A stretch of DNA of 64,000 bases, taken from a virus. This document shows positions 9,425 to 13,816 of the stretch, piece after piece (position 1 is the stretch's first letter; each line of letters opens with the position of its first letter). The stretch covers positions 1-64,000 of IMG/VR virus record IMGVR_UViG_3300047548_001136; one strand, 5' to 3'. The notes beneath the pieces are model-generated. The model was not told the DNA's origin, searched no databases, and was given only the letters and a program-made list of their open reading frames with translations. Both the position numbers and the translations under genes were made by a program.

Positions 9425-9880
9425 ATGACTAAAAATTTAGAAAACTTTTTTAACTTACCTTCAGCAGATTCCGAAGAATTAACTCAATCTGAAATAATTG
9501 AGACATTGAAAGAAGTAGAAGATATTGACGATAAAATGAAAAGTATCGTTGATCTAACTTCTAGCGATAAGGAAATGGATGACCTTGCAGAACAAGCAAT
9601 GGGAACATTTAAAGATTTAATGGATTTAGGTATGAATGTTGATGCAAGAGCCGCTGCCCCTATTTTTGAAGCAGCAACAAAGCTTATGGGTCATGCATTA
9701 ACTGCTAAAGCAAGTAAGATTGATAAGAAACTAAAGCTTCTTGATCTTGAACTTAAAAAGAGACGACTAGATCATCAAATCGCACAAGATACTGGTAATA
9801 ATGAAGAAGCAGGTGAAGTTGAAGGCACAGGCAGAGTTCTAGATAGAAACGAGCTATTAAAAATTATCAAAGGTAATTGA
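9425..9880 (+). CDS. putative terminase small subunit (gp16-like helical protein)
   Basis: Helical/coiled-coil; ARAAAPIFEAATKL resembles the gp16 PRAYEV motif; C-terminal DRNELLK; position after gp4. Confidence 0.45.
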   Translation: MTKNLENFFNLPSADSEELTQSEIIETLKEVEDIDDKMKSIVDLTSSDKEMDDLAEQAMGTFKDLMDLGMNVDARAAAPIFEAATKLMGHALTAKASKIDKKLKLLDLELKKRRLDHQIAQDTGNNEEAGEVEGTGRVLDRNELLKIIKGN

Positions 9881-10365
9881 TGTTAGTTACAAGTAGTAAA
9901 ACAAATCAATTAAGGTTTGTTAGCACTTTAACAAAAAAATACAAACTAGATAACGAGCAATCAACGTTACTAAACGATGTTGTCACAATATTGCCAGTTT
10001 GTAGAAACAATTACAATCATTATGGAATTGATATGATTGAAAACTTTTTTGTTTATCCAATACTACTAAAGCAATATATTGATATATACGAAAACAATGA
10101 GCTAAAAGCTTTTATAACGTATGCTATGTTAGATAAAAATGCAGAAAGAACATGGTTAACTAATAGTAAAAATATTCCTTTTCAAGATTGGAATTCAGGC
10201 GACAGTATTTGGATAATTGATGCACTTAGTCCTTGGGGGCATGGCAGAGCCGTAACAACAAAGCTAGAAGAACATCTATCTAAACTAGGCCATAAAGGTA
10301 AAATTATACGCTATAAACGTAATTACCCTAACGGAAAAACAAGATTTAATCAAAGCATCATATAG
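9877..10365 (+). CDS. RTX toxin-activating lysine-acyltransferase (HlyC/TAAT family) homolog
   Basis: PILLKQY...AFITYAML...E..WL...QDWNSGDSIWIIDALSPWGHG aligns by eye with the HlyC motif EDWTSGDRKWFIDWIAPFG. Confidence 0.8.
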   Translation: MMLVTSSKTNQLRFVSTLTKKYKLDNEQSTLLNDVVTILPVCRNNYNHYGIDMIENFFVYPILLKQYIDIYENNELKAFITYAMLDKNAERTWLTNSKNIPFQDWNSGDSIWIIDALSPWGHGRAVTTKLEEHLSKLGHKGKIIRYKRNYPNGKTRFNQSII

Positions 10366-10405
10366 TAAAAATTGCTAAATACGTAATCGAGAGGTATTTT
10401 TAGCA

Positions 10406-10972
10406 ATGAAAAGCTTTACTGAGTTTTTAACAGAGTCAACCAAACAATACAATTTCCGCATTAAAGTAGCAGGTACTTTAAGCGATGAGCAAGTTGATAG
10501 ACTTGAATCAGCTATGGAAAAGTGGGGCTTACAGAGCATTAATAAGCCAAAAGTAACACCAATCCAAAAGCATCCAGTAGATTTTGCTAACTTAAAAGAA
10601 ATTGAAGTTAGTATCATGGATATGACATTAGATTATCCTGCAACACCCCAAGAAATTATTGCTAGAATGTCAGAATACTGCACTGTAAACCCAGAATACA
10701 TAAAAGTATTCAACAGTGATGATCCAAATGTAGCTGAAATGGAAGCAAAAGCTGAAGAAGCAGAAGAAGAATATGAAGTACAACTAACTGCTCCATATCC
10801 AAAAAGTGAAAAAAATCTTCCAGCAGGGGATAAGTTTACACAAAAGTTCTTAAAAGATCAGAAACGTAAACCTGCATTTAAGATTGCTGGTGGAAATGCA
10901 TCAAAATCTCAGTCAACCAACGATCTACCACAGGGAACAACTAGCCCAATTAGCGGTCGCAAAGGAAAATAA
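10406..10972 (+). CDS. putative capsid-internal/virion protein
   Basis: TAAATA at 10376 and GAGGT SD; N-terminus MKSFTEFLTES resembles a T4 capsid-targeting sequence. Confidence 0.65.
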   Translation: MKSFTEFLTESTKQYNFRIKVAGTLSDEQVDRLESAMEKWGLQSINKPKVTPIQKHPVDFANLKEIEVSIMDMTLDYPATPQEIIARMSEYCTVNPEYIKVFNSDDPNVAEMEAKAEEAEEEYEVQLTAPYPKSEKNLPAGDKFTQKFLKDQKRKPAFKIAGGNASKSQSTNDLPQGTTSPISGRKGK

Positions 10973-12301: not shown

Positions 12302-12471
12302 TGGGCATAGAAATTATAAATATTAAACGTAAGCCTAGTTCAGGGGGCGGAAAAGCTAATGGCACAAGCGGTGCTAAAGTTAATCCGCATACTGTAAAGG
12401 CTCAAGATTTGAGAGTACACAAACCCATAGTAGGCCAAGGTGGTCTAAGTATGGTATTAAAAATGAAGTAA
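12301..12471 (+). CDS. 56-aa peptide with Hint C-terminal-like motif, absent from ORF track
   Basis: TAATG stop/start overlap with the upstream gene; fills the gap up to the next SD; MGIEIINIKRK...HTVKAQDLRVHK... Confidence 0.65.
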   Translation: MGIEIINIKRKPSSGGGKANGTSGAKVNPHTVKAQDLRVHKPIVGQGGLSMVLKMK

Positions 12472-12481
12472 GGGGAAACAA

Positions 12482-13816
12482 ATGTTACACAACGCACAAG
12501 TGGTAGGCTTCGCAGAAGGCACACCAGTATTAATGGCAGACGGCAAGTGGAAGCCAATCGAGGAAGTTAAGCAAGGCGACTGGGTAATGAGCTTCAATCC
12601 AGCTATTGAGAATAGCGAACTTGAGCCACGTAAGGTTGTTAACACATTCTCTACATTGCACAGGGATTGCATTGAAATACATGCTAACGGCAAAGTAACT
12701 ATTGTTGCAAAAGATCAGTTGTTCTTTACCCCTGGAGCGAATTGGTCTGCTGGATATGATACAAAGCAAGTTATGAACTTTGCTGGTGATCGCCAAGAAA
12801 TTCAAGTTCGTCGTGTCCGCGGCGGAAAGTTTAAAGTATTTGATATTACTGTTGATGAAACACATGCTCTTGTTGCTAACGATTTGCGTGTACACAACGG
12901 CGGTAGCAGTAACAACAAGAAAAAGAAAGTAATTGTACAAGCTCCTCAACCAGTTGTAACTGCTGGCAAACCGGGCAAACCAGTTAGTGTTACTACAACA
13001 TATAATGGCAACACAACTACAGTAGTTGTAAATCCAAGCCCAGGTAGCTCAGGTCAGATTTCAGTTGGTGCTAGTGGTACAATTGGTGTTCGTCAAACAG
13101 GTGTTCCTGGACTTCCAGTAAGTGACGGCACTTATTATCAACCAATTGCAGTTCTCCCATATCCAGGCGGCAGCTATGTGCGTGATCGCGCTCTTAATGC
13201 AGAAATTATACGTAGCAGCGTTTGTGGAAATATGTTAAACAGAGGAACTAATCATAAAGCTACTTCGAGTGAAGTTTCTTCTTGGAAGAGCGAACTTAAT
13301 AGTTTGATTAGCGAATTAGAAAGCATGAAGAATGTAAACATTCATGGCGGACCAACAAGAATTGCAATGTCTGTTGACCCAACTCTTATCAACGATGCAA
13401 TTTCAAATGCAAGAAGCTTAAGTAATTCACTAAAGGCAGGACGCAAGTTAACAATTGGTTTAATCCGTCAAAATTGCGATAAACTTGCTAACATCATTGG
13501 CAGAATTCAATCAAGTGTTCCATCAGATTCAGTTGTGTTAGTTCCACAACCTATTCCAATGCCACTTCCTCCTCGTCCAATTGCTCCTCCGGTAGTAGTA
13601 TGTCCAAACCCATCATCTTACTACAGTGAAAGAATATATGAGGGACAAGCAAACTACGAATACATGACTGCTCTTGATAATTGTCAGTATGTATTTGATC
13701 CACCAAATGCTCCTGCTAACACAAGTGTTAGATACTTTAGACACTTTGATCCAAACTCAGGAAGATATTATTATGATCGCATTAACAGCAGAGCTGTTTG
13801 TGCAGGACAACTCTAA
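12482..13816 (+). CDS. Hint-domain autoprocessing protein 2 (N-terminal Hint ending at HN139; Pro/Cys-containing payload)
   Basis: GFAEGTPVLMADG.WKPIEEV..GD.V and VFDITVDETHALVANDLRVHN. Confidence 0.85.
   Translation: MLHNAQVVGFAEGTPVLMADGKWKPIEEVKQGDWVMSFNPAIENSELEPRKVVNTFSTLHRDCIEIHANGKVTIVAKDQLFFTPGANWSAGYDTKQVMNFAGDRQEIQVRRVRGGKFKVFDITVDETHALVANDLRVHNGGSSNNKKKKVIVQAPQPVVTAGKPGKPVSVTTTYNGNTTTVVVNPSPGSSGQISVGASGTIGVRQTGVPGLPVSDGTYYQPIAVLPYPGGSYVRDRALNAEIIRSSVCGNMLNRGTNHKATSSEVSSWKSELNSLISELESMKNVNIHGGPTRIAMSVDPTLINDAISNARSLSNSLKAGRKLTIGLIRQNCDKLANIIGRIQSSVPSDSVVLVPQPIPMPLPPRPIAPPVVVCPNPSSYYSERIYEGQANYEYMTALDNCQYVFDPPNAPANTSVRYFRHFDPNSGRYYYDRINSRAVCAGQL

Follow-up and report, generated by a model that had tools for sequence, protein, structure and literature searches.

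Two neighboring genes in the late operon of a jumbo phage encode proteins that start with a Hint domain whose N-terminal nucleophile is replaced by glycine, which raises the question of what such a domain does for the protein that follows it. The genes (10976–12301 and 12482–13816) lie in the first 64 kb (hereafter, the window) of the IMG/VR virus record IMGVR_UViG_3300047548_001136 (75,233 bp; CheckV completeness of 21%) and encode proteins of 441 and 444 amino acids (aa), designated here Hint1 and Hint2. Two genes upstream is a gene for a lysine acyltransferase of the HlyC/TAAT family (hereafter, TAAT), and a sequence-only reading of the window had joined the three genes in one lipidation system. 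We favor, with about even confidence, another arrangement in which Hint1 and Hint2 would be precursors with a cleave-only Hint pro-domain, the basic cargos behind it would be virion-internal or ejected proteins, and the TAAT would be an independent accessory.

Identity and fold of the N-terminal Hint domains

Each protein carries a Hint domain of ~133 aa after a short leader. The Pfam families PT-HINT, Hom_end_hint, and Intein_splicing all matched the first roughly 140 residues of both proteins. For Hint1, PT-HINT (PF07591) was the best Pfam family, with 33.6 bits (gathering threshold, 27.7; E-value, 5.5e-8); the Hint2 score for PT-HINT, 16.8 bits, is below the threshold. Furthermore, both domains passed the curated cut-off of TIGR01443, the model for the intein C-terminal splicing region. 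AlphaFold2 (AF2) models built on family alignments have the Hint fold at residues 6–144 (Hint1) and 7–141 (Hint2) with a predicted local distance difference test (pLDDT) score of about 80–94 (about 90 in Hint1 and 80–93 in Hint2), followed by a disordered linker. By fold, both domains belong to the Hint superfamily.

The best solved structures identified by Foldseek were the Tetrahymena BUBL BIL2 domain (6TMM/6Y75) and the Clostridium thermocellum CthBIL domain (2LWY), followed by mini-inteins (E-values of 1e-9 to 1e-5), and a sequence search of the PDB ranked the same structures in the same order. Type A bacterial intein-like (BIL) domains are, thus, the closest matches of the window domains in both sequence and structure. 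Like them, Hint1 and Hint2 have the Hint fold and end in His-Asn without a nucleophile at the +1 position (VHN followed by K in Hint1 and by G in Hint2). However, BILs retain Cys1, the block-B Thr and His, and the N-terminal thioester, whereas the window family has Gly, Ala, and Gln at these positions in 51–53 of 54 domains. BILs are also found between two protein segments, unlike the window domains, which are N-terminal behind an 8-aa leader. Neither window domain is a class 1 intein: they have Gly1, Ala-B7, Gln-B10, and Lys or Gly at +1, and no N-extein beyond the 8 residues.

Loss of the acyl-shift residues and retention of the Asn-cyclization residues

The residue changes in the two window proteins recur in their relatives. 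Hint1 has 32 close homologs, and an exhaustive search of representatives added ~30 clusters with a Hint domain starting in the first 12 residues. The resulting family has at least 53 protein clusters, and the residue counts that follow are over 54 N-terminal domains. A metagenome scan with the Hint alignment yielded, among the matches listed, mostly generic inteins and one short family fragment (L084). Gly occupies position 1 in 53 domains, Ala replaces Thr-B7 in 51, and Gln replaces His-B10 in 52. By contrast, no substitution is seen at Asp-F4, His-F13, His-G6, or Asn-G7 in the 50 domains aligned at these columns, the other four having gaps there. Roles in Asn cyclization are described for these four residues in the work that also defines type A BILs (PMC4031507). 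Judging from the alignment, the catalytic-site changes are family-wide and not a product of chance.

Among the next-best matches are 164 internal Hint domains, which have Cys1 in 149 cases along with the Thr, His, and HN residues. Few of these internal domains have a nucleophile at +1, which makes them BIL-like. The contrast between the two groups suggests that the N-terminal family is a BIL derivative in which the acyl-shift residues were uniformly lost and those for Asn cyclization uniformly kept. The sequence conservation also marks the end of the domain: Hint1 orthologs are 52–87% identical across the Hint region, yet identity collapses right after RVHN and the linkers that follow vary in length and composition.

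Most of this pattern had been described for the two window proteins in the sequence-only reading, namely the ~140-aa Hint at the start of each protein, the Gly in place of Cys1, the loss of the block-B Thr and His to Ala and Gln, and the preservation of blocks F and G. These descriptions stand, and so does the statement that the two payloads are otherwise unrelated (hhalign probability of 5.8% in a comparison of the cargo profiles). Two points needed adjustment. The Gly is at Hint position 1 as described, but it is residue 9 of each protein and not the first. It is preceded by a conserved leader of 8–12 residues (MK[VI]NS.., MLHNAQVV, or M..ARVN..), and the residue just before it is M, N, R, V, or S, indicating that translation starts upstream and that the Gly is internal. 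Furthermore, Lys or Gly at +1 is correct for the two window proteins but not a feature of the family, in which the +1 residue (50 members) is M in 24, K in 13, G in 4, L and I in 2 each, and V, A, P, F, and D in 1 each.

With the nucleophile and the block-B Thr and His lost and F4, F13, G6, and G7 kept, a single cut after the last Asn of the Hint domain is the most likely reaction. In the mechanism that we propose, the Hint domain would fold after translation and Asn141 (Hint1) or Asn139 (Hint2) would cyclize with the help of His-F13, His-G6, and Asp-F4 to break the bond to the +1 residue. The acidic Hint domain (net charge of -8 in Hint1 and -2 in Hint2), now with a C-terminal succinimide, would then part from a basic cargo with a new N-terminus. 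Before its self-removal, the domain may keep the cargo inert or soluble, or guide it into the prohead.

Alternatively, the Hint domain could be catalytically dead and have been retained for structure or binding (for example, to dock to a virion component), so that the proteins stay full length. The loss of the nucleophile and of block B would be expected in such a case, phages encode many Hint-domain proteins without a known function, and in some inteins C-terminal cleavage is slowed by N-terminal mutations. Yet the four residues that serve Asn cyclization only are invariant in homologs down to 24–40% identity, whereas those used in the remaining steps have been replaced throughout. The Asn also marks the exact domain boundary, with a disordered linker directly behind it. 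Moreover, complete paralogous BIL domains are present in the same proteins of relatives. We consider a dead Hint domain unlikely.

Additional Hint domains in orthologous proteins

Additional Hint matches were found in 11 of the 53 family clusters. Clusters P0023, P0027, P0029, and P0030 have a complete BIL, from Cys1 to VHN followed by K, between the helical bundle and a Gly/Ser-rich tail, and P0030 has another BIL at the C-terminus. Clusters P0007, P0008, P0009, P0012, P0013, P0014, and P0019 have a Vint/Hedgehog-like Hint domain at the C-terminus, with Cys1 (CFAYGT) and TGSH but no terminal HN; P0009 is the ortholog on one of the syntenic contigs (L004:10001-11971). This layout recalls that of Hog proteins, in which an adduct becomes attached to the domain upstream. 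Hint autoprocessing, thus, appears to recur in the Hint1 protein family, making an inert N-terminal Hint less likely. The multi-Hint orthologs also suggest a wider scheme of Hint-based polyprotein processing in PA5oct-like jumbo phages. The Vint/Hedgehog-like domains are followed by an extension of roughly 40 aa. Clusters P0047, P0048, P0052, and P0053 and the gene L009:9089-10453 encode unrelated metagenomic or viral polyproteins with tandem Hint repeats joined at VVHN/CF.

Cargo proteins and the virion module

The AF2 models divide the Hint1 cargo (Table 1) into a disordered linker rich in Lys, a four-helix bundle (residues 187–305; pLDDT of about 95), and a 130-residue disordered tail rich in Gly, Ser, and Lys. 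In the Hint2 cargo, a Gly/Lys linker leads into a conserved beta segment (PVVTAGKPGKP) and a helical bundle (residues 230–345), after which come a run rich in Pro and a small C-terminal domain that contains Cys. Both cargos carry conserved Gly-Lys motifs. Searches of Pfam, PHROG, and NCBIfam identified no family for either cargo; Foldseek against BFVD and the PDB matched the Hint part only; and the ESM Atlas returned only generic four-helix bundles. Nor did we find Hint-free homologs of the cargos, either with cargo hidden Markov models run over all the fetched loci or in a protein search with residues 175–320.

Table 1. Features of the window discussed in the text.
Feature	Coordinates	Strand	Description
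Hint1 pro-domain	10976..11398	+	Residues 1-141: 8-aa leader and Gly1 Hint ending in VHN
Hint1 cargo	11399..12301	+	300 aa, net charge +19; no Pfam/PHROG family
Hint2 pro-domain	12482..12898	+	Residues 1-139: 8-aa leader (MLHNAQVV) and Gly1 Hint ending in VHN
Hint2 cargo	12899..13816	+	305 aa, net charge +11; no family match
TAAT gene	9880..10365	+	HlyC/TAAT-family lysine acyltransferase, 161 aa; listed open reading frame starts at TTG 9877
Virion protein	10406..10972	+	N-terminus MKSFTEFLTE (T4-type capsid-targeting-like); between TAAT and Hint1 gene
56-aa basic protein	12301..12471	+	Between the Hint genes; position kept in all syntenic relatives
Tail sheath	3329-6607		PHROG match
Tube-like proteins (two)	6650-7267, 7355-8605		PHROG matches
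gp4-type head-completion protein	8961-9416		PHROG match
Large terminase	20090-21649		PHROG match

The genes that surround Hint1 and Hint2 are informative about where the cargos may act. The product of the gene at 10406 matches a virion structural protein family (phrog_14802; E-value, 1.8e-8) and an internal head protein family (phrog_2667; E-value, 6.4e-6). Its homolog in the Pseudomonas phage PA5oct, gp202, is annotated as a structural protein detected in virions by electrospray ionization tandem mass spectrometry (ESI-MS/MS). The products of the genes at 10406, 14317, and 16246 begin with peptides of ~10 aa ending in [LI]-x-E (MKSFTEFLTE, MSLKKYLTE, and MRAKEFLNE). They resemble the T4 capsid-targeting sequence, a peptide of roughly 10 aa removed by the prohead protease (PMC9958956). 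PA5oct encodes a prohead protease. The region from 10406 to 17826 looks, from its sequence, like a cluster of genes for prohead-packaged and protease-processed proteins. VRAKEFIGE and (M)LIEEITLQE, read from internal GTG and TTG starts in genes of this region, are probably further such peptides.

The location of the Hint genes in a late virion module, among products of the capsid-targeting type, makes virion-internal, DNA-associated, or ejected proteins the most likely identity of the cargos, as does the character of the cargos themselves. The T4-type targeting peptide with [LI]-x-E is absent from both Hint proteins, which start with MKINSQIM and MLHNAQVV. For the two cargos, the Hint domain would take the role that the targeting peptide and the prohead protease have for neighboring products. 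The T4 proteins IPII, IPIII, and Alt, which carry a targeting sequence cut by the gp21 protease, offer a parallel: the window cargos are also basic, seemingly non-essential proteins of the virion module, with an N-terminal part predicted to be removed. However, a separate protease cuts a 10-aa peptide in T4, whereas a 140-aa domain would cut itself here, and capsid targeting by the Hint domain is a pure inference on our part.

A further alternative follows from the match to PT-HINT, the Hint domain of polymorphic toxin systems. As in those systems, the window domains directly precede a variable C-terminal module thought to be released. The cargo could then be a polymorphic effector, ejected for anti-defense or host takeover, instead of a DNA-associated head protein. 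The location of the genes among those for packaged proteins is compatible with ejection, and the family combines a conserved N-terminus with a variable or modular C-terminal part in proteins of 408–747 aa. However, PT-HINT domains follow long trafficking or filament regions and precede a toxin domain, whereas the window domains begin at residue 9, leaving nothing upstream from which the cargo would need to be released. The cargos match no toxin family, show no domain recognizable as a toxin or an enzyme, and consist largely of low-complexity sequence. Each cargo core is also conserved among orthologs rather than swapped. This makes an effector role quite improbable.

Comparison with natural and engineered Hint domains

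To our knowledge, every type of Hint domain described so far (inteins, Hedgehog processing domains, BILs, and pre-toxin domains) begins its chemistry with an N-terminal nucleophile. The phage family has dropped the nucleophile half of the reaction and kept the Asn-cyclization half, and it has done so at the very N-terminus of virion-module proteins. Laboratory mini-inteins with a Cys1-to-Ala substitution are used as C-terminal-cleaving tags that release a downstream target with a free, non-Met N-terminus. As in these engineered tags, the N-terminal nucleophile is removed and Asn cyclization would be retained in the window domains. However, the tags are laboratory constructs, whereas the phage domain would be natural and conserved, with Gly1 and an altered block B, and its activity is predicted. 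If active, the phage family would be the natural counterpart of the engineered tags and a new route for phages to mature packaged proteins without a prohead protease. Small self-cleaving tags that accept a broad range of +1 residues could then also be derived from it; M, K, G, L, I, V, A, P, F, and D are all found at this position in nature.

BILs reside in non-essential, variable proteins, and their cleavage products dominate (PMC4031507), a likeness that we draw with the window domains. We tentatively extend the proposal to a natural and conserved class of cleave-only Hint domains that would serve as self-removing N-terminal delivery or pro-domains for jumbo-phage head proteins. Such a class, which we regard as possible rather than probable, would be an autocatalytic alternative to the targeting peptide and prohead protease, combined in relatives with additional BIL and Hog-like Hint domains, which would either split the same cargo into modules or link it to something else. 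The finding bears on the biochemistry of inteins and Hint domains as well as on jumbo-phage head biology.

An HlyC-type acyltransferase gene in the same operon

The sequence-only reading had recognized an HlyC/TAAT-like gene upstream of the Hint genes, and the profile searches agree. The product matches PF02794 (HlyC) with an E-value of 4.1e-18 over profile positions 6–115 of 127, scoring 65.9 bits where the cut-off is 25, and a profile search matched it to ApxC (PDB 4WHN) with an E-value of 1.9e-6. Of the gene bounds first given (9877 to 10365), the end holds, but translation probably begins at the ATG at 9880. This ATG overlaps the stop codon of the upstream gene (TGATG), an arrangement for translational coupling that places the TAAT gene in the late operon. 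The Asp in the WIIDAL motif aligns with the Asp of the ApxC FIDW motif (Asp93, assuming an 11-residue tag in the PDB chain). Furthermore, His48 is conserved in all the close homologs and precedes the Asp by 66 residues, compared to 69–70 in the catalytic dyad of ApxC and CdiC, although the local alignment with ApxC stopped short of His48. These homologs form 17 clusters, with at least 70% identity throughout and no contig longer than 36 kb, in a search that sees close homologs only. Members of the Hint family are encoded on contigs of 357, 237, 128, and 127 kb, and none of these lengths is that of the longest contig of a TAAT cluster. The TAAT gene is, by these features, a genuine enzyme gene, and its product is probably active and expressed with the late genes.

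The TAAT is like HlyC, CyaC, ApxC, and CdiC in Pfam membership, in the aligned Asp, and in having a candidate His upstream, but it is encoded in a phage late operon with no RTX toxin, type I secretion system, or CdiA nearby. No RTX repeat was found in the 75-kb record, in line with the absence of an RTX toxin from the window given in the sequence-only reading, and none of the neighboring products matched RTX protoxin or CdiA families. That reading had proposed the Hint proteins as alternative substrates: removal of the Hint domain would unmask a Lys-rich or Gly N-terminus, which the TAAT would lipidate from host acyl-ACP for membrane targeting of virion or ejected proteins. There are reasons to consider it. 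The TAAT gene belongs to the same late operon as the Hint genes and is two genes upstream of them, its product retains the catalytic Asp with a His at the expected spacing, and both cargos have the conserved Gly-Lys motifs. Indeed, TAAT substrates other than RTX toxins exist, such as the CdiA Lys acylated by CdiC (PMC8510554).

The comparison with relatives points in another direction. Three of six distinct syntenic contigs (the window, 3300016476_000703, and 3300044624_001336, the latter set with a near-duplicate) carry a TAAT gene between the genes at 9425 and 10406. In the other three (3300035703_000256, 3300017917_001172, and 3300020183_000243), the 9425 and 10406 genes are adjacent, without a TAAT gene at the site, and both Hint genes are kept. 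The co-occurrence expected across relatives is, thus, not borne out at this site. Lys/Gly-rich cargo starts are also found in TAAT-negative phages (KGGGSGKKKK and GGGGGGGQPKPK), whereas the Hint1 cargo of one TAAT-positive phage begins with a non-basic linker (VDVAGGNKAIS). In the family, the +1 residue is Met nearly half of the time and Lys or Gly in 17 of 50 members. As far as we know, TAATs acylate internal Lys side chains rather than an N-terminal Gly.

CdiC acylates a Lys of CdiA that is lost in loci without the enzyme (PMC8510554). We compared 13 neighboring products in the same manner for a Lys present in all TAAT-positive genomes and in none of the TAAT-negative ones. Unlike in CdiA, no TAAT-specific Lys column was found in the Hint1, Hint2, 10406, or 9425 proteins. 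K105 of the head-completion protein was considered as a substrate and dropped, because PA5oct lacks the TAAT and has a Lys at this position and the adjacent Gly-Lys is invariant. Of the earlier proposal, the removable, cleave-only pro-domain fits all of the comparative evidence, but adjacency is the one tie that we find between the TAAT and the Hint cargos. The comparative support for their acylation is, thus, removed, though acylation itself may still occur; we consider the lipidation of the exposed N-termini very unlikely. The TAAT gene is best described as an accessory acquired by one sub-lineage and present in part of the clade only. By analogy to CdiC, the enzyme is a plausible lipidating enzyme for some virion protein.

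A second lineage of phage TAATs, typified by gp46 of the Pelagibacter phage HTVC112P, is 25–31% identical to the window TAAT and also argues against a dedicated partnership with Hint proteins. Its genes (L164:6004-6390 and loci L250-L308) adjoin a gene for minor tail protein L in 59 viral contigs, with a large tail protein gene downstream in all of the 57 loci that extend far enough, and no Hint genes flank them in the 59 contigs. That two phage lineages unrelated to each other have HlyC-type acyltransferases in their virion modules suggests the lipidation of phage structural proteins, which we do not tie to the Hint proteins here. The presumed catalytic His and Asp are Arg and Glu, respectively, in HTVC112P gp46, so this lineage may not be a working acyltransferase.

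Weight of the evidence for the proposed self-removing pro-domains

Several points weigh against the proposal of cleave-only pro-domains, packaged cargos, and an independent TAAT. Cleavage and the placement of the cargos in the virion are both read from sequence. The conserved HN could also serve folding, and some inteins cleave more slowly at the C-terminus once the block-B His and the N-terminal steps are lost (PMC4031507). No Hint-free cargo homolog with a targeting peptide was found, and the two types of N-terminus are, therefore, not shown to be interchangeable. A PF03420 prohead protease search of the 75-kb record had no match, but the control genomes had none either, which makes the search uninformative. 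As for the TAAT, the Hint pair is present on every IMG/VR contig with a window-type TAAT, and a functional link may exist within that sub-lineage. Two of the TAAT-negative records were searched whole and had no HlyC member; both are fragments (10% and 22% complete), and such relatives could carry the gene elsewhere.

Genome setting and other features of the locus

The window is from a T4-like jumbo myovirus related to PA5oct, probably recovered from a freshwater metagenome. Two DNA sequencing runs, both of freshwater metagenomes and probably its source, contain the stretch, and no RNA run is listed for it. Its nearest cultured relatives are the jumbo phages PA5oct of Pseudomonas (54% identity of the large terminase), Atu_ph07 of Agrobacterium, and Phosso of Sinorhizobium. 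The genes are ordered as tube, tube-like, 8598, head completion, 9425, TAAT (where present), 10406, Hint1, the 56-aa open reading frame, Hint2, 13829, and 14317 onward, an order conserved in five other distinct IMG/VR contigs. In PA5oct, the homolog of the 9425 gene abuts that of the 10406 gene, with no TAAT gene there and no Hint gene before the terminase. This suggests that the TAAT and Hint genes are additions within the window clade.

The 56-aa open reading frame is translationally coupled to the Hint1 gene (TAATG), and PI.GQGGLSMVLK is the best-conserved stretch of its product. We rejected this product as the C-terminal fragment of a split intein, because the hhalign probability against the Hint C-terminal strands was 1.2% and its RVHK motif is not kept in two relatives. 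A T4 late-promoter-like TATAAATA box is located inside this reading frame at 12315, ~160 nucleotides ahead of Hint2. Similar boxes are at 6621 and 7323, just 5' of the tube and tube-like genes, though the motif is not enriched in the whole window (7 found and 7.6 expected). An HNH-type homing endonuclease gene (19443-20093) is directly 5' of the large terminase gene and overlaps its start. Finally, the adjacent genes at 15764-16249 and 16246-16596 encode small paralogous proteins that share an N-terminal RAKEF[IL].E motif and a C-terminal KKNKYGV or KKKNRYGV.

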